Origin: an uncultured delta proteobacterium
GTDB lineage: Bacteria; Desulfobacterota; Binatia; UBA9968
Direction of reading: 5' to 3'
Length of the DNA stretch: 64,000 nucleotides
NCBI GenBank assembly: GCA_963771465.1
Contig: CAVYTU010000017.1
Coordinates: forward strand, 32,001 to 96,000
A program made the translations under genes and the position numbers. The notes under the pieces were generated by a model. It worked only from the letters and a program-made list of their open reading frames with translations. It was not told the origin of the DNA and did not search any database. Positions 10,325-33,917 of the stretch are shown here, piece by piece; within the stretch, counting starts at the first letter, position 1; each line of letters begins with the position of its first letter.

Positions 10325-10435
10325 CCGGAATGATTTAACCACAAAGCTGAGAATCTTCACATAGAAGGAGGAATCGGTGCTTCGGAAGTTTAACCGCAAA
10401 GAACGTAAACTAGGGGGGCGCAGCAAGCTGCACCC

Positions 10436-16960: not shown

Positions 16961-18127
16961 TTGGCGAAGCAAGATTTGCATGACGAGCGGCGCGAAAAAG
17001 GGCTTGCGGCGCTGGTCGCGGCGGGAATTGCGATCGACGCGCCCACGATCGCGAGCATCGCGTCGCTCAAAGACGCCATCGGCAAATCGCCGGAGGCCGA
17101 TATTGCCGCGGTATATTTGCTTGGCAAGATTGCCGCGCATGAATCAGTCGAACTCCTTCGCCGGATTGAAAAAAGCGCCGGCGACAAAGACGTAAAGAAA
17201 GAGATCAAGCGCGCCTTATTCAAACTCGCGCAAAAAGGGCTGGCGATCGCCGACGATGCACCAAAGGAGAAAAAGCCCGCAAGGCTGTTTGAGCGCACGC
17301 CCGACATCGAAGCTTACATGTCGGCGGTGGACGGCGGCGGCGGACGTTTGATCTGGATCGCCAAGGCGCAGCCTAGTCACGGCTTGCAAGTGATCCAAGC
17401 GATGTTGCACGACCGCGAAGGACTACTTCGTTTCAGCGGCGTGCAAATGAAACGCAAAGAGCTGCGCGCCATGACTGACCAGATTAAACAGCAGCATGGC
17501 GTGAACATGATCGCGATCCCTTGGCAGTTTGCCGACCAAATTGTCTATGACGGCTACGAGAAAGCCAAAGCGCGAGGCCAGAGCGGTCTGGAGAATTTTC
17601 ACGACATCCGCTCGCTCATTGCCACCGGAAAGCCAAAGCCGGTTACCCATCCGGTTTACGCCAAGCTCGGCGCCGCTGATCTGCGCGACGGTTCCTGGCG
17701 CGAACAGTCGCGCCGGCTGCTCGACGAGCCGGAGCTGCGTTACTGGATCGTGATCGACGATTGGCTGAAAGGATACTTGGAACAGATCGAAGATGCGCGC
17801 ACCAGCCCGCTGGTACTCAATCAAATGCAAAAAGAGGAACGACTCGCGGCGATCGTGCGCGAGGCCGTGAAAAGTTTATGCGCCGGCGAGAGCGGCAAAG
17901 CCTTCAAGCAGCGTATGGAGGATACCGCGCTCTACTTTGCCGAGACCCAGCGCCTGGACCAGGCGAAACTTGCGCTCGCGATCGCCCAGCAAGTCGGCGA
18001 AGGCGAGCCAGGGCCGTTAGATATTTCTTTTCTGACCGGACTGATTCAAAAGAGCTTTGCATTCTACATGTCGCAACAAAAAGCGCAGCAAGACGAAGAG
18101 GAGTCGAGGTTGATCATCAAGCCGTAA
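16961..18127 (+). CDS. Hypothetical helical protein (N-terminal HEAT-like repeat)
   Basis: 388-aa ORF with GAAGGA RBS and natural composition; 'KDVKKEIKRALFKL' HEAT-like helix. Confidence 0.7.
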   Translation: MAKQDLHDERREKGLAALVAAGIAIDAPTIASIASLKDAIGKSPEADIAAVYLLGKIAAHESVELLRRIEKSAGDKDVKKEIKRALFKLAQKGLAIADDAPKEKKPARLFERTPDIEAYMSAVDGGGGRLIWIAKAQPSHGLQVIQAMLHDREGLLRFSGVQMKRKELRAMTDQIKQQHGVNMIAIPWQFADQIVYDGYEKAKARGQSGLENFHDIRSLIATGKPKPVTHPVYAKLGAADLRDGSWREQSRRLLDEPELRYWIVIDDWLKGYLEQIEDARTSPLVLNQMQKEERLAAIVREAVKSLCAGESGKAFKQRMEDTALYFAETQRLDQAKLALAIAQQVGEGEPGPLDISFLTGLIQKSFAFYMSQQKAQQDEEESRLIIKP

Positions 18128-18258
18128 AACGAATTGCAGCGATTTAACAAATCCCATTTTTGGGACGCCGAACGAAGTCATTGTCGATAGAAAAATATTG
18201 AATTCTCGGTAGCTTTGCGATAGACGTTTCCAGGCTTTCCCGAAATCGCACAATCAGC

Positions 18259-19725
18259 ATGATTTACCGGATACTCAAGCGCTGGGCTAAAGTCGACCCC
18301 GATAGGATTGTCATAGTCGCTGAGCGACGCTCGCTGAGTTACCGCCAATTGTTGGCCGAGGTCGATGACTGCGCCGCTTACTTTCAATCCCTCGGTCTCA
18401 AGCAGCAAACGCCGATTCTAATCGGCGTCCCGCCGGCGCCTGAGTTCTATGTGGCCTTCTTCGCTACCTGCGCCATCGGCGCAACCGCCATTCCGCTTTT
18501 GCCGTCATCGAGCGGAATAGCCGCGCCGGTGCGAGAGTGCAAGCCGGCTGTCGCCGTCGGCGGCCGGGCCTTTCTTAAATGCGTCAGGACTCAACTGCCT
18601 GAGCTTCGGTACGAAATTCTTTGGGATGCGAAGGTTGGCTTGCATTTGCCGCAAACCCGCCACCGATTTAGCAAAGAGCAGCTAGTGCGCGAGGAGAAAG
18701 TCCTGGCATTGCCAAGCTCGGGCAGCATGGGCGAGCCGATGCTGCGCTATCGCTCCGCCGAGATCGTCGTCAAACGGGCGCAATTGAGAGCCGAGCTAAC
18801 CGGCATCACGACCCGCGATGTGCTGCTTACCACCCGGCCAATCAACAGCGGCGCCGGTTTTAGTTTTCATGTCACGTTACCCGTGCTGTCCGGTTGTAAA
18901 GTCGTCGTGCACGAAAAATTCCAACGCTTTAAGGCGGCTGATACCATCGCCAAAGAGCGCGTTACAGTGCTCAATACCGTTCCCCTGGTTTTCGATCTCT
19001 TGGCTTCTATTCCCACTTCCTATCAGGTCGACTTTACGTCGCTCCGTTTGTGCATGTCGGGCGGCGCGCCGCTGTCACGCTTCGTGCGTGAAAAATTTCT
19101 CGAGCGCTATGGTATCCATCTGCGCCAACGCTACGGCGGCCGCCACTTCAGTCCAGCGTGTGCGTGGAACTATTCCGACGTTGCCGACGCGGTCGGGCAG
19201 AAAGCCGGACCCTTTCCGTTGACCGTAATTGGCGATGATGACCGCGAGATTGAGCCCGGCCAGATTGGCGAAGTGGCGTTCGATTATTCAAAAATGGCGC
19301 GGATCTGGAAGAAGGCCTTGAAGGATAATCCAAACCGCCGTGGCAAATATATCTACACCGGCGATTTGGGCAGGACCGACGCCGACGGCAATGTTTTTAT
19401 CGTCGGGCGCAAGAGTCGATTTATCAAGGTCGCGTCCAATCGAGTGGAGCCCGCGGAAGTCGAGAGTGTTCTGCGCTCTCATCCCCGGGTGCGCGACGCT
19501 CTCGTCTTTGGCTTGAGCGTGGGCCATGCCGACGAGGCGGTGGGCGCCATTATCGTAGCGTCGGGTAACGTCACGACTGAAGATATCCAAAGCTTTTGCG
19601 CCAAGCGGTTGGAACCATACAAATGTCCGCGTCGTATCGAGTTTCGCCGCAGCCTTCCGCACAACGCTCATGGGAAAGTGATCCGTCACCTCTTTACGAG
19701 CGGGATTGGTCAATCTTCGCCTTAA
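18259..19725 (+). CDS. AMP-binding (adenylate-forming) acyl ligase with divergent motifs
   Basis: 'YTGDLGR', 'GRKSRFIKV..NRVEPAEVE' and C-terminal 'LPHNAHGKV'; P-loop reads PSSGSMGEP. Confidence 0.8.
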   Translation: MIYRILKRWAKVDPDRIVIVAERRSLSYRQLLAEVDDCAAYFQSLGLKQQTPILIGVPPAPEFYVAFFATCAIGATAIPLLPSSSGIAAPVRECKPAVAVGGRAFLKCVRTQLPELRYEILWDAKVGLHLPQTRHRFSKEQLVREEKVLALPSSGSMGEPMLRYRSAEIVVKRAQLRAELTGITTRDVLLTTRPINSGAGFSFHVTLPVLSGCKVVVHEKFQRFKAADTIAKERVTVLNTVPLVFDLLASIPTSYQVDFTSLRLCMSGGAPLSRFVREKFLERYGIHLRQRYGGRHFSPACAWNYSDVADAVGQKAGPFPLTVIGDDDREIEPGQIGEVAFDYSKMARIWKKALKDNPNRRGKYIYTGDLGRTDADGNVFIVGRKSRFIKVASNRVEPAEVESVLRSHPRVRDALVFGLSVGHADEAVGAIIVASGNVTTEDIQSFCAKRLEPYKCPRRIEFRRSLPHNAHGKVIRHLFTSGIGQSSP

Positions 19726-19752
19726 CAAATTGATTTTAGAAATTAGCTTCGC

Positions 19753-20634
19753 ATGACGCGGGTACCGCTAATCAAGCTTTGCCATCGGGTGCCTGGTTTC
19801 ATGCGCTTGGGCCGGGCCATTCCAGTTCACTGGTATTTTAGCTGGATCAAGACGGTTGCGCCGCTGATCGGTTTTTTTTCCGTTCATGCCAGAGAACAGC
19901 GACGCTATGTCACGCTGGCGTTAGCCACGAGTCGCGGGCCGGGAGAATCGAAGAGTATTGCGCGCCGCAATCTGATCTACAGAAAATGGCGCGTTTGTCT
20001 GCAAGTGGCGTGGCCAAACATCGCCGGCCGCTATCACCAGTGGGTCTGCCTGCAAGGCGAGGAATACCTCAATCAGGTCTGCGCGGCGGGCCGAGGGGCG
20101 ATTTTGCTGTCAGGTCACAGTTTTGGTTTTAGCGGCATGGCGGTTCGAACGCTGGCACAGCGAGGTCATGAAATTATCAGGACCGGCGCGGGCCGAAATC
20201 CGGAGCGGCAGCGACGTCGCTGGGGCAATGGCGACTTTCAGCGCTGGCAATATCTTGGTTACCATGGTGATTACTGGCACCGGTTTCGTGTCCTCAAACA
20301 GCTGCAAGACGCGCTTAGACGCAAGGCGGTGCTGTATATCGGCATCAGAGGATTGCCTGCCGGCGATCCTGAATACGAGATCGATTATTGCCACGGCCGG
20401 TTTTTTCTCGATCCGCAGATTCTGCGGCTGATCGAAATATTGCAGGTTCCCGTTTTGCCTTGTTTTGTCTTGTGCGATAAGAACGGGCGGGCTGGGATAA
20501 AAATTTTCCCGGCGATAACTCCAGTTGCCAAGGAGATCATAACGGGTTTTGGTTCGCTCTATGCGGAGTATCTGCGAAACTTTCCCGAGAACGCCAATAT
20601 CTGGAAAAGAGTCGCGCGCGGAGAGGAGATTTAA
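19753..20634 (+). CDS. LpxL/HtrB-like lipid acyltransferase family protein
   Basis: 'GEEYL....AAGRGAILLSGH' and 'VPVLPCF' are typical of the lipid A/lysophospholipid acyltransferase fold. Confidence 0.6.
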   Translation: MTRVPLIKLCHRVPGFMRLGRAIPVHWYFSWIKTVAPLIGFFSVHAREQRRYVTLALATSRGPGESKSIARRNLIYRKWRVCLQVAWPNIAGRYHQWVCLQGEEYLNQVCAAGRGAILLSGHSFGFSGMAVRTLAQRGHEIIRTGAGRNPERQRRRWGNGDFQRWQYLGYHGDYWHRFRVLKQLQDALRRKAVLYIGIRGLPAGDPEYEIDYCHGRFFLDPQILRLIEILQVPVLPCFVLCDKNGRAGIKIFPAITPVAKEIITGFGSLYAEYLRNFPENANIWKRVARGEEI

Positions 20635-20888
20635 TGACTCGCGGAGAGATTCACAATAGCGTCGAGGCCTTGGTTAAGGAACTCTACCATCAAGAGGACG
20701 GCGTAAACCTCGCTGAGAATTTCCCGGTTCTTGGCCCTGATGGTGTTCTCGACTCTGTGCTCGCATTGCAGCTCCTTCTCAAGATCGAGGAGCGATTTGG
20801 CATCGTCGTTAACGACGATGAGATCGAGCGCGAAAACCTAGCCAACCTGGCGAGCATCACGAAATTTATCGAGCGTAAATTGGCCTGA
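20634..20888 (+). CDS. Acyl carrier protein
   Basis: Acidic 84-aa protein with 'GVLDSV' phosphopantetheine Ser and 'IEERFGI'; TAATG overlap with the upstream stop. Confidence 0.88.
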   Translation: MTRGEIHNSVEALVKELYHQEDGVNLAENFPVLGPDGVLDSVLALQLLLKIEERFGIVVNDDEIERENLANLASITKFIERKLA

Positions 20889-20967
20889 ACTGATGCGTGA
20901 TTCTTTCTCTGATCCTCTGCACGGGAATAGCGTGGCGGACATTCGGTAAGAGCTTTCAGCAGACCAG

Positions 20968-23900
20968 TTAGTTGGGGGCTTCGACGGAAGGAATCGTAAA
21001 ATAAGCCGGGTCTGAAACGGCGGACCGGAGCAATTGGAGTTCCCTTTCCAGTTCCGCCACAGCTTCCGGCGTTTGGTACTGATCTCGTTCGCTACTTACT
21101 TGCTCGAGAGTCTTTGCGGCGGCATAGGCCCGTTGACCCGCAAGTTGTCCCACAGAAGATGCCAGGGTGTGGGCGGCCTTGGCGAGTGATTCATAGTCTG
21201 ATCGGGACAAGGCCTGATGAGTTTTTTCTAGTAGTTTGGGATATTGGTCGAGGAAAATCCGCGCCACCTCACAAAGCAGCTCGCGGTTTCCATCGACTAG
21301 ACTTAGGGCCGTGGAGAAATTGAGGATGTCGGCTTGAGTCGATGACTCCAGCGCGGGATCCGTTAAGGGAATGGTTTTGGCGGCGGCTATGCGGCGCGCT
21401 ATGGCGGCTTTAAGATCCCCAGGGTTTATCGGCTTAGAAACATAGTCATCCATGCCAGCCGCCAAGCATTCGTCTCGATCCACTTTCCGCGCATGAGCTG
21501 TGATCGCGATGATGGGAGTATGACGGCCCTTGCTCGCTTCCAGTGCGCGGATTTGGCGGCATGTCTCCAAGCCATCGGCCTCCGGCATCTGTATATCCAT
21601 CAACACCATGTCGTAAGGTACGAGCTTGAAGGCCTCCAACGCCTCTTTGCCGTTGCCGACCACATCGGCCCGATGGCCCATCTTGTTGAGTAGACTGGAA
21701 ATCACTTTTTGGTTGATGTGATTATCGTCGGCTACCAAGACCCGCAACCGATGCGTCGAATTTTGCTCCGAGGATATTTTTCCAAACATCGCGGTGGTGG
21801 AAGAGCCGCTCCTTGACGGCTCTGCCATCAAGTCTGCCAGGCGCTCAGCGAGAACTGAATGCGTAACCGGTGCGGCTAGCCAGGCGTCGACACCGGCTGC
21901 TTTGGCGAGTTTTTCGGCGCCATTTTTCTGCACTGAAGTGACCAGCAAAAGCTTCAGCGCGCTGAACTCGGAGTTGTTCCGTATGGTTTGGGCGAGCTCT
22001 TGCCCGTCCATTCCCGGCAGCATGAATTCCATAATCACCAAATCGAAGGGCTCGCCGGTTGCGCGGGAGATCCGTAATAACTCCATCGCAGTCGGGCCAT
22101 CCTCCGTGCTCTGACTTTTGATTCCCAAGGAACTCACGCAGTGCTCGATGACGCTGCGGCTGGTCTCGTTGCCGTCGACGATAAGCGCACGCAGGCCGGC
22201 CAAATTCGCTTGGGTACGCAGGGTCTTCCGATCGGGTGCAGGCTGTTTTAGCAACGGCAGGGTAAACCAAAAGGTGCTGCCCAATTCTGGTTTACTGTCC
22301 ACCCCGATCTCACCTCCCATCAGCTCGACAAGATTCTTGCAAATCGCCAAGCCGAGTCCGGTGCCGCCGTACTTACGGCTAATCGAGGCGTCGATCTGAG
22401 TGAACGAGTGGAAGAGCTTTTTGACGTTGTCCTCAGGAATACCGATACCGGTGTCGGTGACGGAGAATCGGAGGTTAGCGTGAGTGTCAGTTTGCTCTAG
22501 CTGGGCGACCTCGACGATCGCATTTCCCTTGGCGGTATACTTCAACGCATTGTTGACCAGATTGGAAAGGATTTGGCGTAATCGGCCGGGGTCTCCCTGT
22601 AAATCAGTCGGCACATCGTCCTGGATCGAGCTGATAAGCTCTATATTTTTGTCCGCGGCTTGCTTGGCGAAAAGATCGGTAACTTCGGAGACCACGCTGC
22701 GCAAATCAAAATCGATGATCTCGAGCTCGAGCTTGCCTGATTCAACTTTAGAAAAATCCAAAACTTCGTTTATCACCGTAAGCAAGGATTCGCTCGACCG
22801 TCTGATGATGCCACAATACTCAGTCTGTTCGGGTGAAAGTTCGGTGTCGGACATCAGGCCCGCCACGCCGATGATGCCGGTCATCGGTGTCCTGATCTCG
22901 TGGCTGATATTGGCCAAGAATGCGGACTTGGCCTGATTCGCTGCGTCGGCTCCTTCTTTGGCCAGTCTGAGTTCCTCTTCAATGCGCCTGCGCCGGGTCA
23001 GATCACCAGTGACTTGGGCAAAACCTGTAAGCGTGCCGGCTTTGTCACGCACCGTCGCGATAACCACATTGGCCCAAAACATCGAGCCGTCCTTATGCAG
23101 CCGCCAGCCCTCGTCTTCACAGTGACCCTCGGCGAGCGCAGCCTGCAATAACTGCTCGGGTGTACCGTTGTCGCAGACGTCGATGGGGAAGAAACAAGAG
23201 TAATGTTTACCGAGAATCTCATCCGGACGATAGCCCATGAGCCGTTCTGCGCCTTTGTTCCAGGTCAAGACGCGTCCTTCGGGATCGAGCATAATGATCG
23301 CGTGGTCTTTCACATTCTCGATCATCGAACGGAAACGTTCTTCGCTCTGCCGTAACGTTTCCTCGGCCTGCTTGCGCTCGGTGATGTCGACGACGGAAGC
23401 CAGAACATGAATTCCACCGGGTGTTTCAAGCGGGTTCAAACCGATTTCGACGGGAAAAGCATCGCCGTCTTTGCGGATACCGTAGAGTTCCTGACCAGCG
23501 TCCGTTGCGCGCCACTGCGGCAGGGGCGAGGCTATTCCTCCAGGGCGCGAGTGTCTTTCGCGATGGCGCCATGGCAGTAGGCGCTCTACCGGTTGATCGA
23601 TCAGTTCTGCTTTGCTGTAGCCGAAGAGCCGCTCAACCTGCGAGTTGACGAGTTCGATCCGGCCCTTCTGATCGACCATCACAATGCCGTTTGGCGCCGA
23701 TTCCACGATGTGGCGGAAGCGCTCTTCGCTCTGCCGCATGGTATTTTCTGCCTGCTGGCGTTCGGCAAGAACAGCGGCTAACACCAGGGTTGTCACGGCT
23801 TCGGTGGCCATGAAAGCCTGTAATAGCATGAGCGACGCAGTGGGGGTTTCCCCCGAAAAGGAACCGACTCCTTGCAGTGTACCCCAGATGGCGGTCGCGG

Positions 23901-24627
23901 ACATCAAAGCGGTAGATGTCACAGCTCCGTATTGTCCAAAAAGCAGCGCCGACAACAAGAGCGGTAAAATACTTAAGAACGACAGCGGATAATTTTTGAT
24001 ATCGCTGAAGATCCATTCGCCAAAGACAATCTGGCTAAAGACAAAGACGAGCACGAACAAACACACCGCATCGAATATCCAACGCCTGTGCCAAGGCGGA
24101 AAAGTCGCGGCGCCCCAGACCAACAGAAGGGGAGCGACGACGATATCGCTGGTCATATCTCCGAGCCACCAGGTCATCCAGATGGCGGAATAATTATCCC
24201 AAGGAGCAAAACCGCCAAGGCACAGGGCAGTCACGCCGACGGTGGCGCTGACCAGAGTGCTGCCCGCGCCGGCAAAAACGACAAATTTGACGACATCGGT
24301 AGAGCGCTCAAACGCCGCCGAACCATTGGCGAAGCGGCGCACGAGAAAGGCGCCCAAAAGTGCTTCCATTGTATTTCCCGCGGCGATGGCAAGGGAGGTC
24401 TGGACAGACCCTGCGGTGAGTTCGTTGATCAGGAAGGCACCCAACATAATCCCCGGCCAAACTCGATTGCCAAACAGGAGAACTGCTGCTAGTGCAATGC
24501 CTGTCGGCGGCCAAACTAGCGTTGCGCTCGGATGAACTACGGCCAAGGACAAGCCGAGTTTTCCGGCGTAAAAATACAGCGGGCAAAGAGTTCCAACGAT
24601 TGCTAGATAAGTTAAATATCTCTTCAT
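20968..24627 (-). CDS. Hybrid histidine kinase (MASE1-PAS-PAS-HisKA-HATPase-REC-REC-HPt)
   Basis: MASE1 'WPPTG' and 'WWLGD', two PAS domains, 'FLANISHEIRTP', 'GGTGLGL', two receivers and HPt 'AHTL'. Confidence 0.93.
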   Translation of the reverse strand: MKRYLTYLAIVGTLCPLYFYAGKLGLSLAVVHPSATLVWPPTGIALAAVLLFGNRVWPGIMLGAFLINELTAGSVQTSLAIAAGNTMEALLGAFLVRRFANGSAAFERSTDVVKFVVFAGAGSTLVSATVGVTALCLGGFAPWDNYSAIWMTWWLGDMTSDIVVAPLLLVWGAATFPPWHRRWIFDAVCLFVLVFVFSQIVFGEWIFSDIKNYPLSFLSILPLLLSALLFGQYGAVTSTALMSATAIWGTLQGVGSFSGETPTASLMLLQAFMATEAVTTLVLAAVLAERQQAENTMRQSEERFRHIVESAPNGIVMVDQKGRIELVNSQVERLFGYSKAELIDQPVERLLPWRHRERHSRPGGIASPLPQWRATDAGQELYGIRKDGDAFPVEIGLNPLETPGGIHVLASVVDITERKQAEETLRQSEERFRSMIENVKDHAIIMLDPEGRVLTWNKGAERLMGYRPDEILGKHYSCFFPIDVCDNGTPEQLLQAALAEGHCEDEGWRLHKDGSMFWANVVIATVRDKAGTLTGFAQVTGDLTRRRRIEEELRLAKEGADAANQAKSAFLANISHEIRTPMTGIIGVAGLMSDTELSPEQTEYCGIIRRSSESLLTVINEVLDFSKVESGKLELEIIDFDLRSVVSEVTDLFAKQAADKNIELISSIQDDVPTDLQGDPGRLRQILSNLVNNALKYTAKGNAIVEVAQLEQTDTHANLRFSVTDTGIGIPEDNVKKLFHSFTQIDASISRKYGGTGLGLAICKNLVELMGGEIGVDSKPELGSTFWFTLPLLKQPAPDRKTLRTQANLAGLRALIVDGNETSRSVIEHCVSSLGIKSQSTEDGPTAMELLRISRATGEPFDLVIMEFMLPGMDGQELAQTIRNNSEFSALKLLLVTSVQKNGAEKLAKAAGVDAWLAAPVTHSVLAERLADLMAEPSRSGSSTTAMFGKISSEQNSTHRLRVLVADDNHINQKVISSLLNKMGHRADVVGNGKEALEAFKLVPYDMVLMDIQMPEADGLETCRQIRALEASKGRHTPIIAITAHARKVDRDECLAAGMDDYVSKPINPGDLKAAIARRIAAAKTIPLTDPALESSTQADILNFSTALSLVDGNRELLCEVARIFLDQYPKLLEKTHQALSRSDYESLAKAAHTLASSVGQLAGQRAYAAAKTLEQVSSERDQYQTPEAVAELERELQLLRSAVSDPAYFTIPSVEAPN

Positions 24628-24663
24628 CGCTTCGCGGCGTCGATCTGTGTCGGGAGTGGCATA

Positions 24664-24692
24664 AGTTTAGTGAGTAGGGTGAGTAGCGTCAA
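24664..24692 (-). promoter_or_regulatory. Putative sigma70 promoter for the hybrid kinase
   Basis: Minus-strand TTGACG-N17-TAAACT; the spacer contains a CTACTCAC direct repeat. Confidence 0.5.
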
Positions 24693-24887
24693 GGGAAAGT
24701 TTGCGCACGGAGTAGTTTTAGGAATCTGTCGTAAGTTTTTGGTGAACCGTCCGCTTCGTCACGGGCGAAAGCCGGCCTGCCTGGATGGAGGGCTGGCTCT
24801 TTCGCCCGTTAGATTCTCATCGATGTTCACGAGCGCCGTCGATCGTGTTATGGATAGCCTCACACGCTAGGCACGGAAGGAGCACTC

Positions 24888-26048
24888 ATGCGCCACGATT
24901 TTAAGATTTATGATTCGGACACGCACCTCAATCCCTCGGCCGAAACCCTGGAGCCCTATTTCGATGCCGCCATGCGCAAGCGGCTGCCAGAGTGGGAGAG
25001 CTGCAAGGTGCCATTTCGTATCGGCTGGGCCGGCGAGATTTTAGAGCCGCCTTATCGCCACCGTTATCGGTTTAAGCAAAGAGCCGGCTGGCGCGAGGAG
25101 TTGCGTATTCTAGGAGAGGCGGGTCCCCGGCAGCATGTCGAGCATCACTTCCCGAAGTTCATGGGTAGTCGTTTCCCGACCCCGGGCGGCTCTGATGATG
25201 ACGCTGAAGCACGTGTTCGGGATATGAACGAGGAGGGAGTGGACGTGCAACTCATGCTTCCCGGATTGCCGCCGGCCACCGACGACGCCGAAGTTGAAAT
25301 CGGCTTTATCCAGGCCAACCATCGCTTTACCGATGACTTCTGCCGCAAGCAACCGCACCGTCTCAAGTCTCTCATCGTAGTGAGTAGCAAAGCGATCGAA
25401 CAATCGGTGCAAGAAATAAAAGCATGGGCGCGTGCGCCATGGGCCGCCGGCATTCATCCCAACCTGGCTGAAGGCGTTCCCATCGACCATCCGGACCTCG
25501 AACCGATCTGGGCCGCGGCCAACGACGCAGGGCTTTGCGTGACGCATCACAGCTTCACCTCCGGCTATCCCGGTTACCGCGATCTCTGGGACAATCCCTT
25601 CATCGGCCGCACTGCCTCGCACCCGTGGGGCGCCATGAGAGCCGTGACGGCATTTTTCGGTGCCGGGATCATGGATCGCTACCCTGACATTCGCTATTGT
25701 ATCCTCGAGTCGGGCTTTGGCTGGCTGCCGTTTTGGGCCGCGCGCATGGACGACCAATGCGAATACATGCCTTATGCCCTGCCAAAAAATCTCGCTCGCA
25801 AACCCAGCGAGTACATGACCAGTGGGCGCTTCTTCGCCAGCGTGGTGATCCACGAAGGCGAAAAGATGGCCCGCATGGTCACCGAATTCCTTGGCGACGG
25901 CGTGTTAATGTATTCGTCCGATTATCCCCACGCGGAGTCGCGTTTTCCCGAGTCCACCAACAAGGTGCTCGGGTGGAAATCCCTGGGCGACCAAGTTATG
26001 GGAAAAATGCTCTGGGACAACGCCACGAAATGCTTTGGCGAGCCGTAA
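24888..26048 (+). CDS. Amidohydrolase_2 family protein
   Basis: 'DSDTH', 'LESGFGWLP', 'KPSEY' and 'SSDYPH'; AAGGAG RBS. Confidence 0.9.
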   Translation: MRHDFKIYDSDTHLNPSAETLEPYFDAAMRKRLPEWESCKVPFRIGWAGEILEPPYRHRYRFKQRAGWREELRILGEAGPRQHVEHHFPKFMGSRFPTPGGSDDDAEARVRDMNEEGVDVQLMLPGLPPATDDAEVEIGFIQANHRFTDDFCRKQPHRLKSLIVVSSKAIEQSVQEIKAWARAPWAAGIHPNLAEGVPIDHPDLEPIWAAANDAGLCVTHHSFTSGYPGYRDLWDNPFIGRTASHPWGAMRAVTAFFGAGIMDRYPDIRYCILESGFGWLPFWAARMDDQCEYMPYALPKNLARKPSEYMTSGRFFASVVIHEGEKMARMVTEFLGDGVLMYSSDYPHAESRFPESTNKVLGWKSLGDQVMGKMLWDNATKCFGEP

Positions 26049-26164
26049 AGTATGTTCGGCAATTTTGGGAACCTATGCAAAATAATCATAACGGCCAATC
26101 GTGTTTATCGACCGGCGCGTTGAAAACAATGAATTGCGACGTCGCAGACGGAAAGGAGTCGCTC

Positions 26165-26302
26165 ATGAACCCACTCCGGCATTTGGGCATAGGTTCCGAA
26201 GAGCCCGAGAAGCTCGCTGCTTTTTATACAGAGGCTTTTGGCTTGCCAGTGTTATCCGCGGAACCGGCGGCTCGATTAGAGTTGTCCACGAGAGGGATTA
26301 CT
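26165..26302 (+). pseudogene. 5' remnant of a VOC/glyoxalase gene in frame with the downstream SBP
   Basis: AAAGGAG RBS before ATG 26165; 'LRHLGIGSEEPEKLAAFYTEAFGL' is the first VOC beta-alpha motif, with no further VOC sequence. Confidence 0.55.
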
Positions 26303-27436
26303 TTGCTTCGCCAGCTTGCAGTCTGCGCGCTTTTGATTCTGAGTTTTCATGTAGCGCGAGCCACGCCCGCCGCAACGGCGGCGGAGAAGCCCGGCTGGCA
26401 AGCGGAGTGGGAACGCACTCTTGCCGGCGCCAAGAAGGAAGGTGCGGTGTATCTGTGGGGTGATGCGGAGATCACGCACTCCGATATCATAGCAGCCTTT
26501 ACGAAAGAATTTCCGTTCATAAAACCGATCATGGTCACGGGAAAAAGCGGCGACCTCACAGTGCGTCTGTTATCGGAGAGACGCGCAGGAAAATTTTTGG
26601 CCGACGTTTATAGCGGGACAATGAGCGGCGCGGCATTCTATGAATTTTATCGCTCCGGGGTCTTCAATCCGATCAAACCTACTTTTATTCTGCCAGAGGT
26701 TGCCAGCGAGTCCGGCTGGCTCGGCGGCAAACACTATTACGTCACCGCCGAGAATTATATGATCCTGTACGAAGGCAATGTTGCGGGCACAAGCATCTAC
26801 TACAACACCCAGTCGGTAAGGCCCGACGACTTCAGCTCTTACTGGGATCTACTTGCCCCAAAGTGGAAGGGGAAAATTGGCATGTTCGAGAGGGCCGGTT
26901 CCAGTTTTCCAAGCTTGACGGCGGTCTATTACCATCCGCAACTCGGCCCTGATTATATAAAGCGCCTGGTCGGCGAAATGAACGTCACGGTTTCGCGCGA
27001 TCGGCGGCAAGCCACGGACTGGCTGGGAACCGGGAGGTTTGCTTTGTGCATCGGTTGCGGCGACGTGGAGCGCGCAAGCAGAGACGGTATGCCGGTGGGC
27101 GAGCTGGAGCGCAGACACCTTAAGGAGGCCGGAAACAGCATCACCCTCAATGGCAACAGCGCGCTTGGCCTAGTCAGCAAGGCGACTCATCCGCATGCCG
27201 CCGCGGTTTTTATCAACTGGTTTCTCTCGCGCAGAGGGCAGATGGTTTGGCAGGAGGTCATGAACGCAAAGGTGGGAGAACCATCGAATTCCATGAGGAT
27301 CGATATCCCGAAAGATAATGTCTTACCCGCAGCGCGGCGGGATGACGGTGAGAAGTACCAGGTCACCGGTTTTCTCGACCCAGCGCCTCCTACCAAACTT
27401 ATCGAGGAGCTTTTGTCAAAGAGAGGCGCGAAGTAA
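26303..27436 (+). CDS. ABC-type extracellular solute-binding protein (family 1/6, Fe3+/polyamine-like)
   Basis: GAGGGA + TTG 26303 opens a signal peptide; 'WERTLAGAKKEG', 'WDLLAPKWKGKI' and 'HPHAAAVFINWFLSRRGQ'. Confidence 0.8.
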   Translation: MLRQLAVCALLILSFHVARATPAATAAEKPGWQAEWERTLAGAKKEGAVYLWGDAEITHSDIIAAFTKEFPFIKPIMVTGKSGDLTVRLLSERRAGKFLADVYSGTMSGAAFYEFYRSGVFNPIKPTFILPEVASESGWLGGKHYYVTAENYMILYEGNVAGTSIYYNTQSVRPDDFSSYWDLLAPKWKGKIGMFERAGSSFPSLTAVYYHPQLGPDYIKRLVGEMNVTVSRDRRQATDWLGTGRFALCIGCGDVERASRDGMPVGELERRHLKEAGNSITLNGNSALGLVSKATHPHAAAVFINWFLSRRGQMVWQEVMNAKVGEPSNSMRIDIPKDNVLPAARRDDGEKYQVTGFLDPAPPTKLIEELLSKRGAK

Positions 27437-27481
27437 CGCTGTTCCGAGCCCGAAGCCGATTTTGTGCTTCTCTGAAAAAAT

Positions 27482-28609
27482 TTACTTAACTTTAAATTCC
27501 TTGGCCGCGTCCTCGTTGATTTCGAGTCCCAGTCCGGGGCTCTCACTTAAAGTCACCCAACCGTTCACGGTTTTGGGCGCATCTTTAAAAATCACGTCGG
27601 CGGCTAACCAGTTCGGTACGCGAACCTCGGCTCTCCATCCATTGGGAACAGCGGCAAGCAAGTGCAGGTCGAAATAATCGCCATTGGCGATCGGCAGATT
27701 GAACGCCTGAGCCACGGCCGCCACCTTCATGCCCATGGTGAAGCCGCCAACTGAGCCGACGTGGGGTTGCACAATGTCAACGGCGTGCTCGCTGGCTAAT
27801 TCGCACAGTTTGGCAAAATTATCTCGCTGGCCGGCGCCAATGGGAATGCTGGTGCTTTTGCGTAGCTCCGCCAGCAAGCGAGTATCATTGAATAGGATAG
27901 GTTCCTCGAACCACATTAGGTTATAGGGCTCGAGACGCTTGCACCAGCGTAGCGCGGTGTCGAACTTCATCAAGCAGTTGGCATCGACCATCAACTCGAC
28001 GTCGTCGCCAACGGCTTCCCTGACGGCTCTAATGCGGGCTTCATCTTCGGCTGGGTCATCCTCGCGGTGCTCGGCACTCGCTCCCGCACTGTCCATCTGT
28101 CCGTGAATGTTCATTCGGCCGACCACGATCTTGAGCCGTTTGTTGCCTTGCGCAACGAAATGCTTGGCCGCTTCAACCAGTTCCTCACGGGAATAACTCC
28201 TGAAGCCATAGGTTAGATAGGACGGCACAGACTTTTGCGCGCCGCCGAGCAGACGCCAAACAGGGATGTTAAAAAACTTGCCCTTGATATCCCAAAGCGC
28301 GACATCGACGGCGCTGACGCCAAAGCTCCACACTCCCGCGTGGGCACGGCTGTTGAAGTTCCACAGCATCTGATGCATCAAACGCTCGGTCTCCAGCGGA
28401 TCTTTTCCCTGGAGAAAAGGGGCGAGATCCTGGCGGATGAACGCGATCGTTGCCGAAGGCATAGCGCCGCCGATTTGCGAGAGGCCGACGATGCCATTAT
28501 CCGTTTTCACCTGTAGCAGAGTCACCGATTGAGACATCGGTGCCTTGACGAAGGGTGGAGTTACCGGAATATTAGCGAGCTCAAAAATTTCGATTGCGTC
28601 GATTTTCAT
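27482..28609 (-). CDS. Mandelate racemase / muconate lactonizing enzyme (enolase superfamily) protein
   Basis: 'SAVDVALWDIKGK', 'LLGG', 'LMVDAN', 'WFEEP' and 'PGLG'; AGGAGG RBS. Confidence 0.9.
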   Translation of the reverse strand: MKIDAIEIFELANIPVTPPFVKAPMSQSVTLLQVKTDNGIVGLSQIGGAMPSATIAFIRQDLAPFLQGKDPLETERLMHQMLWNFNSRAHAGVWSFGVSAVDVALWDIKGKFFNIPVWRLLGGAQKSVPSYLTYGFRSYSREELVEAAKHFVAQGNKRLKIVVGRMNIHGQMDSAGASAEHREDDPAEDEARIRAVREAVGDDVELMVDANCLMKFDTALRWCKRLEPYNLMWFEEPILFNDTRLLAELRKSTSIPIGAGQRDNFAKLCELASEHAVDIVQPHVGSVGGFTMGMKVAAVAQAFNLPIANGDYFDLHLLAAVPNGWRAEVRVPNWLAADVIFKDAPKTVNGWVTLSESPGLGLEINEDAAKEFKVK

Positions 28610-29012
28610 TGGTGCCTCCTGTGTATTTTCAATTGGATAAAGAGCACGGTAACGGAGAGGTTTTCAAGGGCCCGACTCAACTTCTTGAAAGATGTTTGGG
28701 GTCATGTGTGCCGTCAGGATTGAAAATCATTCCAGTCATTTTTCCCATTGCGGCAGCAAGTGAAGATGAACGAGAGCGCAATCGCCGCCAATCGTTAAGC
28801 CGCAGTCCTTTGCGTTGGTAAAGACTTCACTTAAGTTTGCGGCTGTGGTGAGCTTTTGATATGGCCTCGGTGTGTTACAGGAGTTTCGGCGGACCGTGAG
28901 GCGTGATGGAATCTGCTGATCGCCGTCGGGAAGAGTGGTCGTCACTGACCATTTACAATAATTTATGTTCGGATAGTTTTCACTCGTAGCAGTTCTAAGA
29001 AAGGGAACAAAC

Positions 29013-30689
29013 ATGGCACAGCTCGAAGTGTTCAATCCGGTGGCCGAGATTCGTGGTGACTTAACGCCTCAGGGGGTGAGCCCGCGCGTCGCGAGTCTGG
29101 AAGGGAGTACATTGGGGTTACTGTGGTCTGGAACCACCAATGGCGATGTGGCGCTGCGTCGAGTCGAACGGCACATGCGTGAGCGCTTTCCAAAAGTGCA
29201 AACAAAATTTTTTCAAGGCGACCATCCATTTACCGAGCGCCTTTTGCGCGAAGTCGCCGACACCTGCGATGGTGTCGTCATCGCAACGGCCGATTGAGGC
29301 GCATGTAGCTCGTGGAGTATCCACGGCGCAGTGCAGCTTGAGAAACTAGGAAGACCGGCCGTTACCATCGTGTCCGGGCGGTTGGAAGGGGATGCCGTCG
29401 AGAGCGCCCGTGTCTTCGGCATGCCGGAATTGCAGTACGTGCTGGTGCCGTGGATATATCGCAACCTCGATCCCGAGCGGGTGGTGGCGCAGACGGACGC
29501 GGCGATGGACGACATCGTGCGCGAGCTGACGACGCTGCGATCGGCAAAAAACCAACGCGTTGAAGCAGCAATGCGGGAACGATTCGAGGGCGACTCCCAG
29601 CTGGATGCGTTGGAGCGCATGAATGAGGAATTCCTCCTGCGTGATTGGGGCGATGGTTATCCCTTACTACCGCCGACGACCGAGGCGGTGGAGCGGATGC
29701 TGACGGGAACCTGTCTAGCACCAGACCATGTGTTGTGTGACGTGGCGCCAGGATGGGGATTGGCCACCGTCGAAAAGGTCGCCATCAATGCCGCTATGGC
29801 CGGTGCCAAGCCGGAGCAACTGCCAGTAATTTTGGCGGCACTCAAAGCGCTCGCCAAGCTCGACCCTGAGATGGCGCGCTTCTTCCTCATGTCCACCGGC
29901 TCCCATGCTTCCTTGCTGTTGGTAAACGGGCCCATTGCGAAGGAGATCGGCATCAATGCGCGCGCGGCCATGGGACCTGGACGGGATAATCAGGCCAATC
30001 TGATGATCGGCAGGTCATACACCCTATGCCTGAAAAATATCGGCCACTGGTATCCAGGACTGATGGATATGGACACCTTGGGATCGGTGCGCAAGTTCAC
30101 TGTGTGCGTGGCGGAGAATGAGGAAGCAAGTCCGTGGGAACCGTTTCATGTCGAGAAAGGATTTCGCAAGGAGGAGAGCGTGGTCACGCTCATGGGAACC
30201 CGAGGAGAGATTGACGTACCAGACCAAGGTAACACGACCCCGGAAGGTCTCTTGAAGAACATCGCGTTCAACTGCACCTTCGGCCAAAAAGATCTGCGCC
30301 ATAGCGCGGATCCAGATATCGGGCGTCGGGTCATCCTTATGGTGCCGCCTGATCCAGCGCGAGTCATCGGCGAGGGCGGCATCAGTAAAGTGGGAGCCAA
30401 GGAGTTCATCCATTTCCACGCCCGCAAATCGTTGCTTCACTCTCTGGCGTTCATGCCGTTGCGCGGTAGCAAGGGCGATCTGCGTTGGCTGCCGCGGCAA
30501 TGGCATTGGCTGCGTGATCTTTCGGATAAAGAGTTGGATGCGATCGTCGAGCCAGTGGTGGAACGCGCCGACCGATACGATCTGCTTTGCGTTGGCGCGG
30601 ACCGAGCCAAGTTTCAGATCATGCCGGGCGGGCCATTCAGCCCGTCGAGCGAGAACATCGACCAGTACCGCGCCGGCGCCAGACAGTAG
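29013..30689 (+). CDS. Putative selenoprotein (558 aa, Sec at TGA 29295-29297, UGAC motif): UGSC-family domain fused to its large partner domain
   Basis: ORFs 29013..29297 and 29331..30689 share a frame (offset 318 nt). Read-through gives ATAD-U-GACSSWSIHGAVQLEKLGRP. The C-terminal part has 'WGDGYPLLPPT', 'TVEKVAINA.MAG' and 'ENEE.SPW'. Confidence 0.85.
29304..29330 (+). promoter_or_regulatory. Candidate bacterial SECIS element
   Basis: UGU-a-GC-u-CGUGGA[GUA]UCCACG-GC-GCA hairpin with a bulged U; loop G lies 20 nt after the UGA. Confidence 0.7.
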
Positions 30690-30716
30690 AACGGGCAATT
30701 CAATGGAGTTAGGAAT

Positions 30717-31796
30717 ATGAAGCAAACAAGATCCGGATGCGGGTTTGTTATCAAGTCGTTGCTATGGGCATTTCTGATGAGCCCGCTAATCGTCGATGAC
30801 GCCTTCGCGCAAGCTCAGTTTTACGAGGGCAAAACGATTAGAGCGATTGTCGGACAAGCGCCCGGCGGACTGGGAGCTAATCGAGTCAAAGCTCTTGTTC
30901 CCTTTCTGCAAAAATATATTCCGGGAAAGCCGCACATTGTTACCGAGTACATGGACGGTGCGGGCGGCCAGAAAGCCGCAAACTATGTTCACAAGACCGC
31001 ACGTCCCGATGGACTTACGATCGGCTTTTGGTCCGCCGGTGCCGTGCCGGCAGCTGTGCTCGGACAAATGGGCGTGCTCTACGATCTCAAGGAAGCGATT
31101 TTTCTCGGCGCTCATCAAACGGGCCGGAGCACGACTTTCTTTACCCGTAAAGAACTGGGTCTGGATAATTTGGAGAAGCTACGCGCGGCCTCCGGTTTGC
31201 GCGTCGGTGCTCAGGCGGTGGGTCATGGCGGCTACTACGTCGCGCGACTCTTTGCTTATGTATTCGGTCTGAAGGAGCCCAAATGGGTGACAGGTTACAA
31301 TGGCCCCGAGTCCGATATCGCCATTACGACCGGCGAGATCGACAGCCGGGCGTCTGCTATCGACCAAATCTTGGCGTCACGACTCGACTGGGTCGATAAG
31401 GGTCTCATGCATTTCCATGCGATCTACGAGGTTCCCAAAGGTCAGCACCATTCTCATCCGCGATTTGCTCAACTTGCGGATTTTAGCGCCTTTGCCAAGT
31501 CCGAGAGAGAACGCAAAGTTTTAGATCTTTACCGCATCACGCAAAGCGCCTCCCATCCGGTGGTGTTGCCGCCGAAAACACCAAAGCAGATCGTGCAGAC
31601 CTTACGCGACGCGATGGCGAAAGTGTTCGACGATCCGCAATTCTATAAAGACTACGAAAAACTCACAGGAGAGGAACCTCGGCCGCTGACGGGCGATTTG
31701 CTCGAGCGGGAGATTCGCGACATCGGCGGCCAGCAAGACATCGCCGAGCTGCTCAAAAAAATCGGCGGCCCCGATACTTTGCCGGCGCGCCAATGA
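30717..31796 (+). CDS. TctC/Bug-family substrate-binding protein
   Basis: Signal peptide; 'FYEGKTI..IVGQAPGG', 'MDGAGG', 'PDGLTI' and 'GY.G....A...GEID'. Confidence 0.82.
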   Translation: MKQTRSGCGFVIKSLLWAFLMSPLIVDDAFAQAQFYEGKTIRAIVGQAPGGLGANRVKALVPFLQKYIPGKPHIVTEYMDGAGGQKAANYVHKTARPDGLTIGFWSAGAVPAAVLGQMGVLYDLKEAIFLGAHQTGRSTTFFTRKELGLDNLEKLRAASGLRVGAQAVGHGGYYVARLFAYVFGLKEPKWVTGYNGPESDIAITTGEIDSRASAIDQILASRLDWVDKGLMHFHAIYEVPKGQHHSHPRFAQLADFSAFAKSERERKVLDLYRITQSASHPVVLPPKTPKQIVQTLRDAMAKVFDDPQFYKDYEKLTGEEPRPLTGDLLEREIRDIGGQQDIAELLKKIGGPDTLPARQ

Positions 31797-31870
31797 AAAA
31801 ATTTGTGCGGCAACCAAGTGCGCACAGTACTTACGTATAGCAATCGGCCAGCGAATTATTTGGAGACGCG

Positions 31871-32116
31871 ATGATAGAGACGATCGAAGCGGCATTGCAA
31901 CCCATTCGAAACTCGCTCGAGGTTGACGGTTTCGATCTTAGAGTTGATGGCATCAACGACGGTATTGTTTCTGTAGTAGTTTTCGCTGGGCCGGATGCCT
32001 GCCTCGAATGCTTGATCCCCGAAGAACACTTCAAGTTGCGGATTGAGGATAAACTGAAGGGACTCGTTAAAGCGGTGCGATTGCGTTATCCGCAAACCGT
32101 TCAACCATCGCATTAG
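31871..32116 (+). CDS. NifU C-terminal-like small protein with CxxC
   Basis: 'LQPIRNSLEVDGFDL' and 'DACLECL'; GGAG RBS; 81 aa. Confidence 0.7.
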   Translation: MIETIEAALQPIRNSLEVDGFDLRVDGINDGIVSVVVFAGPDACLECLIPEEHFKLRIEDKLKGLVKAVRLRYPQTVQPSH

Positions 32117-32122
32117 CGCTGC

Positions 32123-33595
32123 CTAGTCCTGTGACGCTTTGGCTGCGGCCAACGGCGTCTGTAGTCCGAGCTCGTCAGCCACCGCGCGCTCGACGACGGT
32201 GCCCTTGAAGAAGTCGGGGTTGTTACGCGTATGCAGACTGGCGGCGTTGGTGAACGTGAACTCGCGGAAGTCCTGCACCGTTACGAAGCCCTTTTCCAAC
32301 ATCTCAAACGCTTCAGGAATCACGTCTCTGAAATCAGGCACGTCGAAATGGGTGAAGTCGGAGCTGAACACCGGTCGCAGGCGAACACCCATACGGGGAT
32401 CGAAGGCCCACATGGTCGCCCGGTCGTCGGCCTCGCAGCCGAAGTAGAAGTTGCCGGAGAAGACTGCCCGGACATCTTCTTTGGAGTTGATTCCCGCCGC
32501 TTCAAAATCGTCCGCGACGTGCTCAGGCCGCGCGAGCTCTTCAAGACTGCACTCCGGGCGGAATGCGTCCAGGCTGTTCATGATCGCGTCGGCGTTGGCT
32601 TTCAGTTTTTGATCGCCGTACTTGCCGATGAGCTGATGCATCTCGGCGACGCTGGTTGCGCTCGGATACTGCAACCCGGCGCGGCGGCGCTTCTCCCAGT
32701 GTTCGATCATGTCGGCGCACATCTGACAGGCCCAGCTGACGCCGCCTTCCATGAAACCGAAATTGAGGCTTGGGTAGCGCCGCACGAGACCGCCGAGGAA
32801 AACGCCGCGCGCGAAGGCGTGATTGGATTCGGCGAAGTGGCCGACGTGGTTGTAAGTGAAGTTGCTGATCGACGCGCGATCCGACCAGCGGCCGCTGCCC
32901 GAGTGTTGAGTCACAGCCACGCCGAGATCGACACATCGCTGCCATAACCGCTCGTAGTCATAGGGGCTGTCCAGCGCGATGGTATCGCAATACCAGGCGG
33001 CCTTCTGCGGGTCGATTCCTCCTTCCGCTGCGGCTGGGATCGGCCGCTCCTGGTTTCCCCGCAGCATGATCGCTTTAAAACCACGCTGACTGACCGCGTA
33101 TTCGAGCTCCTCAAGAGCTTCGTCCGGCGTCTGGGAGGGGATGATCGCAACCGGCGCAAACCTTGCGGCGAACGGCGCGAACATGTCCGCCGTCATCATG
33201 TTGTAGGCACGCACCGCGGCCCGATGCAGATCGCTCTGGACAATGCCGTTGATGCTGAGGCCGAAGCTCGGATAGATCAGCGCGAAGTCGATGCCCAATT
33301 CCGGCAGCCGTTCGTTCAGCAACGCCGGCAGCAGCGCCGTCGCCTTATCGAGCGTATTGCTAGTCACACCCCACCAGATGGTGCGCCGCATGCGGTTGTG
33401 CTGGCGTTCCTCCCAGGTCGCTTGGTACCACGCTTGATTGCGGCGCCACAGCGCTCGCATCTGATCGACCGATGCCGCGCCGGCCACTTCGCGCAGGTAC
33501 TCGAGAAAGATCGGTATCGGCTCCATCCAATGGCCATCGCCGTCGATCACCGGGTGCTTCAGCTCATCGTGGATCTGTGCCGCTCGATTCTCCAT
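32123..33595 (-). CDS. Amidohydrolase_2 family protein (long form)
   Basis: 'IDGDGH', 'FMEGG..W', 'YFGCEADD' and 'SSDFTH'; AAGGAG RBS before ATG 33595. Confidence 0.88.
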   Translation of the reverse strand: MENRAAQIHDELKHPVIDGDGHWMEPIPIFLEYLREVAGAASVDQMRALWRRNQAWYQATWEERQHNRMRRTIWWGVTSNTLDKATALLPALLNERLPELGIDFALIYPSFGLSINGIVQSDLHRAAVRAYNMMTADMFAPFAARFAPVAIIPSQTPDEALEELEYAVSQRGFKAIMLRGNQERPIPAAAEGGIDPQKAAWYCDTIALDSPYDYERLWQRCVDLGVAVTQHSGSGRWSDRASISNFTYNHVGHFAESNHAFARGVFLGGLVRRYPSLNFGFMEGGVSWACQMCADMIEHWEKRRRAGLQYPSATSVAEMHQLIGKYGDQKLKANADAIMNSLDAFRPECSLEELARPEHVADDFEAAGINSKEDVRAVFSGNFYFGCEADDRATMWAFDPRMGVRLRPVFSSDFTHFDVPDFRDVIPEAFEMLEKGFVTVQDFREFTFTNAASLHTRNNPDFFKGTVVERAVADELGLQTPLAAAKASQD

Positions 33596-33917
33596 GGTCG
33601 CGACTCCTTTCGCCAATCTACTTTCTCCTACCGCTAAGCCGGCGAATCGTCAATCGCAATCGATCACACGAGTGTTGGCCAAGCGTGTCTGAGATTTCGT
33701 CGCGATCAAAGTGTGTAGAGCTGCGACGCGTAAAGGAAACGGCGCTCTTGTTGGAGGCCACGAGAATAGTGAAAAGAAGATCGATGCAACAATTCAACGT
33801 GCTCGCGTTGTCGCCTAATTGGGACGTACGAAATTTTCTCTAAGCTCCGCACGAAATTCCCTTCCTCATTCATCCTCCATAGTGGCATAAATCTAGAGTT
33901 ATCTACTATTTACGCTC

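Follow-up and report, generated by a model that had tools for sequence, protein, structure and literature searches.

The stretch of DNA considered here, 64,000 nucleotides (nt) from an uncultured delta proteobacterium of the Desulfobacterota (contig CAVYTU010000017.1, positions 32,001 to 96,000), is called the window throughout, and the genome to which it belongs, an assembly of 19 contigs and 6.9 Mb, is referred to as G000. The three genes under study, A, B and C, lie side by side on the forward strand and are given in whole-window coordinates. A encodes a selenoprotein in which a UGSC domain is fused to an unnamed second domain, C encodes a small NifU/Nfu-like protein with a CxxC motif, and B, which lies between them, encodes a protein related to TctC-type solute-binding proteins. 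We have found that the conserved core of the locus consists of A and C, and that B is optional. By analogy with related loci, the chances seem about even that A and C make up a two-gene selenoenzyme system in which C acts as the reductant or electron carrier of A. The features on which the argument turns are the following (aa, amino acids; Sec, selenocysteine; SECIS, selenocysteine insertion sequence).

29013..30689, + strand: gene A, selenoprotein of 558 aa in which a UGSC domain is joined to an unnamed domain of ~370 aa
29028..29531, + strand: UGSC domain of A (aa 6-173), Pfam PF24696; three-layer alpha/beta, flavodoxin/Rossmann-like in the model
29295..29297, + strand: Sec codon U95 of the U-G-A-C motif, with C98 as the paired Cys (...ATAD-U-GACSSW...)
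29308..29327, + strand: core of a SECIS-like hairpin, GC-TCGTGGA / GTA loop / TCCACG-GC, with an outer stem at ~29295-29341
29565..30686, + strand: C-terminal domain of A (aa 185-558), ~370 residues, without Pfam or NCBIfam family
30717..31796, + strand: gene B, 359 aa, a divergent TctC/Bug-type solute-binding protein, predicted to be exported; facultative
31871..32116, + strand: gene C, an 81-aa NifU/Nfu-like protein with C44-x-x-C47 (nt 32000-32011)

Conservation of the A-C pair

A scan of metagenomes for the C family gave 24 loci, which were examined with tblastn and lists of open reading frames (ORFs). B lies directly upstream of C in 13 of them (12, plus a remnant of ~50 residues in L146), and beyond B the next gene is A in all five loci that extend far enough. 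In a further five (L134, L136, L138, L139 and L145) A itself stands directly upstream of C, at a distance of 35-110 nt and without B. Next to the C of L137 a decayed A fragment was found, and the most divergent C (53%, L144) is accompanied by a glyoxalase-family gene instead of A, with no A at that locus; of the remaining loci, three have C at the end of a contig and one was set aside as too weak a match. Altogether, C adjoins A or a remnant of A in 11 of the 12 metagenome loci that extend far enough. B is optional, since A and C occur without it at five loci and it has been reduced to a remnant at L146.

The same picture was obtained within the phylum, where strong C matches were found in only two of 401 genomes, G000 itself and G336, which belongs to the same family and another genus and carries A (81%), B (67%) and C (68%) in a row (L151). 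The order A-B-C was also found in genome G041 (L044/L149), which has in addition a broken second copy (L150, contig 30, ~207 kb) in which an A fragment (residues 1-88) abuts a C fragment (residues 32-81). None of 28 fetched loci with weak NifU-like matches from the phylum sample had A or B within 1.5 kb. The C family was thus found almost only directly downstream of the window-type clade of A. A preliminary description of the locus had proposed to look for an enrichment of NifU-like and TctC genes beside UGSC genes, and for C this was borne out, as both the metagenome and the phylum tests made from the C side link it specifically to A.

From the A side, 80 ortholog loci were collected from species-representative genomes, and only one of these, L044 from a metagenome-assembled genome labelled 'delta proteobacterium' (79% identical), has B and C. 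The neighbours of the 80 loci are heterogeneous, the commonest family being zinc alcohol dehydrogenase (19 of 80). No ortholog of the window's A was found in 24 genomes of the same genus (a tally that includes G005), in which the best matches reached at most 36% and were of other paralog types.

Some of these loci show signs of decay. At L146 (1675-1830) some 50 residues of B are left and the surrounding A and C are intact, the reading frame of A is broken in L129 (227-1901), the overlapping part appearing in both frames, and L150 gives the impression of an A...C unit that has lost its interior by deletion.

Gene A is a selenoprotein

The co-orientation of the three genes noted in the preliminary description, with gaps of 27 nt between A and B (30690-30716) and 74 nt between B and C (31797-31870), is confirmed by the ORF coordinates, and the four motifs that it listed (WGDGYPLLPPT, NAAMAG, ENEEASPW and ACLEC) were all found in the translations. 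A GGAG-type ribosome-binding site stands upstream of each gene, and no terminator-like site was found on the + strand between them. The fusion of a Sec domain to a domain of ~370 aa also stood, A being one 558-aa read-through with a single in-frame TGA.

That Sec is inserted at codon 95 of A is settled for practical purposes. The 80 ortholog loci and the window, 81 in total, all have TGA at the identical column, and in all 81 the hairpin motif TCGTGGA-N3(5)-CCACG follows at a distance of 13 nt. The Ser codon TCG and the His codon CAC of the hairpin are each fixed in 81 of 81 loci; synonymous positions are expected to be frozen in this way when the RNA structure is under constraint. Of the four other intact UGSC genes in G000, three share this hairpin. 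Its single-sequence folding energy is unremarkable against shuffles (z -0.69), so that its weight comes from conservation and not from folding energy, and an Rfam scan of the whole window gave no family at gathering score and no curated SECIS match. The columns of U95 and C98 are invariant in 38 of 38 aligned sequences. G000 also has the machinery for Sec insertion, with selA (614.1 bits), selB (358.6 bits) and selD (376.3 bits) adjacent on contig 14, the selD gene itself having a TGA, and a tRNA-SeC found by aragorn.

It could be argued that the TGA marks a genuine stop or results from a sequencing error, and that A is either two genes, of 94 and 452 aa, or a pseudogene. Standard ORF calling does cut A at the TGA, into 29013..29297 (94 aa) and 29331..30689 (452 aa), the public gene calls listed are all of the post-TGA fragment, and a decayed UGSC copy with eight stops is present elsewhere in G000. 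Among 1327 homologs of A, all those in the 120 matches listed are 319-460 aa long, below the read-through length of 558 aa. Against this, the Pfam UGSC match runs across the TGA, full-length fusions of a Cys type with GD-C-GSC at the Sec position exist elsewhere, and both the conservation of codon and hairpin and the complete Sec machinery of G000 described above are at odds with a stop or an error, which makes this explanation so improbable that it hardly needs to be carried further.

Domains of gene A and their other arrangements

The N-terminal part of A matches PF24696 with 110.8 bits (E 1.1e-31), far over the cut-off of 25, and is a member of that family. The NCBIfam equivalog NF041046 gave 95.2 bits over aa 31-173, under its cut-off of 125 bits, which marks A as a divergent, fused form. 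In an AlphaFold model of A built on a 38-sequence alignment (pLDDT 83.4, pTM 0.80) Sec95 is placed between strand 87-93 and helix 96-111. The matches of the UGSC part are generic, with Z up to 11.9 in VIA (rmsd 2.7, 123 aligned; 229 chains with Z>=8) and a best E of 2.9e-4 in Foldseek, to azoreductases and flavodoxin-like chains. A thioredoxin-like fold was suggested for UGSC in 2008 (PMC2398784, a text available in part), and to judge from the flavodoxin/Rossmann-like model the UGSC domain of A does not look like that fold; no thioredoxin-fold chain is among the fold-match rows listed for the domain, an absence from a list which is not an exclusion. A search of the A profile against PDB sequences gave nothing relevant, its one match having an E of 0.81.

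The C-terminal domain (residues 185-558) had no Pfam or NCBIfam match even at E<=10. Modelled alone it was predicted with pLDDT 85.5 and pTM 0.87, and no convincing solved relative was found for it: the best Z in VIA was 5.8, over 81 residues, the best E in Foldseek was 2.5e-3 with a TM of ~0.2, and a second fold search reached a Z of 5.3 in a small sub-domain that also matches chorismate mutase. In the ESM Atlas, 29 of 30 matches fell in unannotated clusters of its own kind. D214, T222, N305-G-P, R334, E368-N-E370, W375 and K459 are invariant family-wide. Three cysteines, C242, C339 and C365, are present without exception in the 31 window-type sequences, and of these three other clades keep only C365.

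According to the preliminary description, Sec domain and partner are frequently encoded by two neighbouring genes, and G000 itself bears this out. There are six UGSC matches in the genome, each with an in-frame TGA. A single gene encodes UGSC and partner domain in the window, on contig 18 and on contig 11, and the two domains are split between neighbouring genes at two places on contig 17, at 441 kb and at 457 kb. The sixth match is a decayed copy (L013 7017-8445; contig 14, 928016-929444, - strand) with 53-56% identity to A and with 6 TGA, 1 TAG and 1 TAA inside; no neighbour resembling B or C was noticed beside it. With the partner-domain profile, 6959 representative clusters are recovered at E<=0.001, and a scan of 33 long representatives gave 19 N-terminal UGSC fusions, three in the reverse order with UGSC C-terminal, two in which an N-terminal redoxin/AhpC-TSA fold is fused to the partner domain, and seven of 709-741 aa with two copies of the partner domain. 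The proteins with a tandem pair of partner domains and no Pfam family (P0185, P0188, P0189, P0197, P0214, P0221 and P0293) span 616-741 aa. As fused and split forms stand side by side in G000 and fusions recur among the long representatives, the UGSC and partner domains are coupled.

Within this genus, the paralogous fusion of the contig-11 type has its own recurrent neighbour. Directly downstream of it in G000 lies a thioredoxin-reductase-like (TrxR-like) gene, which matches TIGR01292 with 321 bits over its full length, just below the cut-off of 343 bits, and the TrxR-like gene is found downstream of the fusion in 11 of 12 loci of relatives; in L183 it lies ~1.5 kb further off. At one of the split loci (L010, contig 17, ~443 kb) a ComA-family gene (10093-11043), (2R)-phospho-3-sulfolactate synthase-like, comes directly after the split partner gene and is followed by NMT1/SsuA-like binding proteins. 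The adjoining ComA-family gene hints that this split paralog might deal with sulfonated compounds.

Gene C

C scores 24.5 bits against the Pfam NifU family PF01106, below the cut-off of 27, and PF01106 appears in the precomputed annotation of about half of the C-family clusters. The family as a whole is compact, with 63 clusters of 58-129 aa, mostly 79-81 aa, and 62-100% identity. All 19 aligned members share C44, C47, H53 and the stretch D19-G-F-D22 without change. Among solved chains the C profile matches only those of Nfu type, and these weakly, the CxxC being aligned with that of 2z51_A. C is unique in G000.

Gene B and the binding proteins of G000

B scores 20.5 bits against TctC (PF03401), below the cut-off of 27. 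Its N-terminus, in a translation judged by eye, is signal-peptide-like, and those of A and C are not; because of this predicted signal peptide, B would be exported and would act in another compartment than A and C. The Pfam scan of the window's ORFs, to which the search was confined, gave no TctA or TctB family. B has many relatives, as tblastn gave 107 matches in G000, including loci above the TctC cut-off (26-32% identity), and the genome carries ~540 loci of TctC/NMT1/SBP_bac-like binding proteins, an extreme expansion.

At four of the five intact UGSC loci of G000 a binding-protein gene lies within 100 nt. With ~15% expected per gene, four or more of five would arise by chance with P ~0.002, a rough value, as paralog loci and catabolic islands are not independent. 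The gene-count estimate was used for this purpose in place of a random-interval simulation of adjacency (P=0.025 per locus), which was set aside as anti-conservative because it places its intervals without regard to gene ends. Among relatives, the contig-11-type paralog too is flanked by TctC-like genes, at 10 of 12 loci. A loose, recurrent link between UGSC enzymes and genes for imported solutes is real in this lineage, without any one binding protein being required. Other divergent paralogs of TctC type are probably encoded in the window, judging from its sequence: three ORFs of ~380 aa have no Pfam match (1294-2427, 2483-3634 and 12311-13465), and the first of them overlaps a 28%-identical tblastn match of B (1360-2307).

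Flanking genes

Two genes flank the A-B-C row, both assigned by Pfam.

27482..28609, - strand: enolase-superfamily gene, divergent flank upstream of A
32123..33616, - strand: Amidohydro_2 gene, convergent flank downstream of C; at most a putative member of the unit

The preliminary description took the flanks as candidates to complete a catabolic route. The divergent enolase-family gene and the Amidohydro_2 gene are indeed there, and neither is a fixed part of the neighbourhood. In L133, whose A is 93% identical, A is immediately preceded by an ortholog (82%) of the window gene at 16961-18124, so that the window carries ~10.9 kb extra (18125-29012) and the enolase flank is not conserved. Orthologs of the Amidohydro_2 gene (87-100%) follow C in L125, L126, L127, L129, L131, L133 and L135, and other C loci carry different genes at this position, the gene being kept in close relatives only.

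The stretch 18125-29012, absent at that place in L133, holds genes for an AMP-binding enzyme, an Amidohydro_2 protein, an SBP_bac_6-like protein and the enolase-family protein, as well as a 1218-aa MASE1/PAS hybrid histidine kinase (20968-24627, - strand). In two A-B-C loci a small sCache_2 protein is encoded between C and the convergent Amidohydro_2 gene (L140 1332-1811 and L141 2058-2537).

Occurrence in RNA libraries

A 3.3-kb stretch of the locus was found in 20 public runs from 16 studies of soil, rhizosphere, urban and freshwater-sediment metagenomes, six of the runs being RNA libraries. Contigs of four RNA libraries, from four studies, match A, B and C at >=99%. One of them (29277-29488) spans the TGA unchanged, another (30668-30859) runs from 22 nt of A across the spacer into 143 nt of B, and a third (31708-31949) from 89 nt of B across the spacer into 79 nt of C. 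The contigs leave 29011-29232 and 30343-30564 of A uncovered, which has no bearing on expression. These matches lend weak support to the expression of A, B and C.

Proposed mechanism and alternative explanations

We propose that A and C would work together as a two-gene cytoplasmic selenoenzyme system. The redox-active pair, Sec95-x-x-Cys98, would sit on the flavodoxin-like UGSC domain, and the C-terminal domain, with its invariant polar residues E368-N-E370, R334, N305 and K459, most likely binds and positions the substrate. The obligatory coupling of a U-x-x-C domain with one of substrate type points to a reductase in which the Sec/thiol pair must be re-reduced in each turnover, the pair being thought to finish as a selenenylsulfide. 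In the window clade this re-reduction may be carried out by C, Nfu-like and with its invariant CxxC; in sister clades thioredoxin-fold fusions or the dedicated TrxR-like gene may stand in place of C. C is the most likely reductant or electron carrier because it is the only constant companion of A in the window clade, and the role is given to it by analogy with the TrxR-like gene of the contig-11-type paralog and with the redoxin fusions of the partner domain. B, inserted between A and C in one sub-clade, lies outside the core, and hints that the substrate may be an imported carboxylate. The unit of ligand capture, Se-dependent reduction and recycling that had been put forward for all three genes therefore holds in part: the Sec fusion and the linkage of C stand and the reductant is plausible by analogy, and a constant binding protein is not found.

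Several observations weigh against this mechanism. No B or C is found near 79 of the 80 A orthologs, which come mostly from Dehalococcoidia/SAR202, with one Entotheonella record, and are 47-58% identical, and when four Dehalococcoidia genomes with A orthologs were searched whole, none had a C-family match at E<=0.01. A can thus function without C. Nfu-type proteins are known as carriers of iron-sulfur (Fe-S) clusters and not as disulfide reductants. No fusion of A with C was found, nor any C-related protein longer than 142 aa, which is weak evidence. The RNA-library contigs cannot prove a single transcript, and DNA carry-over is possible in such libraries. The function of UGSC is still given as unknown in a 2026 review (PMC13188914, available in part).

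The main rival to C as a redox partner is C as a dedicated Nfu-type carrier that loads or repairs a [4Fe-4S] cluster on A, held by C242, C339 and C365. It would agree with the fact that C has detectable relatives only among Nfu/NifU domains, where its CxxC falls on the cluster-binding position, with the PF01106 annotation of about half of its family, and with the invariance of the three cysteines in the window type. The faint fold matches of the C-terminal domain also include [4Fe-4S] hydro-lyases, namely class I fumarate hydratase (Foldseek E 2.5e-3, VIA Z 4.6-5.3), L-serine dehydratase (Z 4.1) and CyuA (Z 4.2-4.3). These matches are nevertheless under the reliable level (Z<6, TM ~0.2), and the matched region is the small, common alpha/beta sub-domain shared with chorismate mutase. 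Furthermore, the cysteine triad is not family-wide, and Dehalococcoidia orthologs hold all three cysteines without having a C gene. A cluster on A served by C is therefore considered rather unlikely. The two roles of C can be brought together in a wider proposal, in which A and C form a self-contained selenoenzyme for an imported organic-acid substrate, and C, with its Nfu fold, acts either as dithiol reductant of the selenenylsulfide or as private Fe-S donor; as a whole this is offered tentatively. If C were the dithiol reductant, the NifU fold would be seen in a role new to it, and if C were the Fe-S donor, A would be a selenium and iron-sulfur enzyme on a fold without solved relative.

Two further explanations lie on either side of an A-C pair, one making the unit larger and one dissolving it. 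The larger unit is the module of the preliminary description, with B for the capture of a ligand, A for its reduction or cleavage, C for the recycling of A, and the enolase and amidohydrolase flanks to complete a catabolic route. The close, co-oriented spacing with no + strand terminator-like site would suit it, as would the recurrence of A-B-C in G041, G336 and five metagenome loci, the binding-protein genes near the UGSC loci and the contig-11-type paralog, and the convergent Amidohydro_2 gene after C in close relatives. This module is improbable in view of the five A-C loci without B and the ~50-aa remnant in L146, of the predicted export of B and not of A and C, of the lack of TctA/TctB matches among the window's ORFs, and of L133, whose A has no enolase gene upstream. 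No neighbour is conserved among the Dehalococcoidia orthologs, where even the commonest is found at 19 of 80 loci, and B-like (107) and Amidohydro_2 (138) matches are extremely common in G000. What had been described as a three-gene module with a flanking route is thus reduced to a core of A and C with an optional binding protein. At the other end, A and C may be mere neighbours, C being a general Fe-S assembly protein and A being served by the general thioredoxin system of the cell. That 79 of 80 A-ortholog loci manage without C or B would fit, and small NifU-like proteins occur elsewhere in many genomes of the phylum (229 others with weak matches). In its strict sense (63 clusters, 62-100% identity), however, the C family has A or a remnant of A as neighbour at 11 of 12 loci that extend far enough, a strong C match is missing from 399 of the 401 sampled phylum genomes, and even the decayed copy of G041 (L150) unites fragments of A and C, so that chance proximity is more improbable still than the enlarged module. 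The reading of C as a partner of A, with C most probably acting on its Sec/thiol pair, is the one that we prefer.

Comparison with known systems

A 'UGSC/Unknown_1' fusion was reported in 2008 by Zhang and Gladyshev, who counted UGSC among the major selenoproteins of aquatic metagenomes, where it is one of the most abundant predicted ones (PMC2398784, whose text is available in part). Like the UGSC family, A has a U-x-x-C motif, a domain match that crosses the Sec codon and a fusion to a conserved, uncharacterised domain, and as a Sec form it agrees with the near-exclusive use of Sec in the family, for which the portion of PMC2398784 at hand gives 255 Sec against 21 Cys forms in the GOS data. 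Unlike the family norm, its motif is U-G-A-C and the NF041046 cut-off is missed. From the wording of the same partial text, the C-terminal domain of A is probably the 'Unknown_1' of 2008. In the part of a 2022 review that was available UGSC is listed without function (PMC9312934). The UGSC fusion is hence known and uncharacterised, and no dedicated Nfu-like CxxC partner gene for UGSC was found in print; as far as the literature was searched, such a linked partner is undescribed and seems new.

The proposed division of labour might be compared to that of the reductases for glycine, sarcosine, betaine and D-proline, which are thioredoxin-fed selenoenzymes whose selenol is regenerated by a thiol-disulfide system. 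In GrdB/PrdB with GrdE/PrdA, as possibly in A, a selenoprotein part with U-x-x-C works with a substrate-specific part, and the U-x-x-C motifs of the glycine and proline reductase selenoproteins are tabulated in the available part of PMC9312934. No sequence relation between A and these proteins was detected, and the partner domain of A is without solved relative. A search of G000 with PF07355 (GRDB) at E<=10 gave eight matches, none at the six UGSC loci, and three UGSC domains, from the window and the two split loci, matched only PF24696 when compared with Pfam at E<=10; a kinship of UGSC with GRDB, considered as a candidate, was thus not detected by either search. No GrdA-like protein was identified. 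G000 does have five loci of the GRDB family (PF07355), on contigs 17, 11, 7, 13 and 15, one of them split over three frames; having no in-frame stops, they are non-Sec forms.

The function of UGSC selenoproteins has been obscure since 2007-2008, and the partner domain belongs to a large, nameless family. A small, tightly linked CxxC protein would give a biochemical handle on them, and the optional TctC-type protein could offer a route to the class of substrate. This value is limited by the uncultured host and by the lack of partner C in most A orthologs.

B is like the TctC/Bug proteins (PF03401) in its length of 359 aa, in its N-terminal export signal and in its BLAST kinship to paralogs that pass the cut-off, and unlike typical members it falls under the Pfam cut-off itself and is one of more than 100 paralogs. 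C, in turn, resembles the C-terminal domains of Nfu/NifU (PF01106; 2z51_A, 2m5o_A, 1veh_A) in its size and in the alignment of its CxxC with the cluster-binding one. It differs from PF01106 members in scoring under the Pfam cut-off, and its D-G-F-D and A-C-x-E-C-L-I-P motifs differ from the usual Nfu pattern of the aligned chains. Unlike Nfu/NifU proteins at large, the C family is narrow, and it is tied to one selenoprotein gene.

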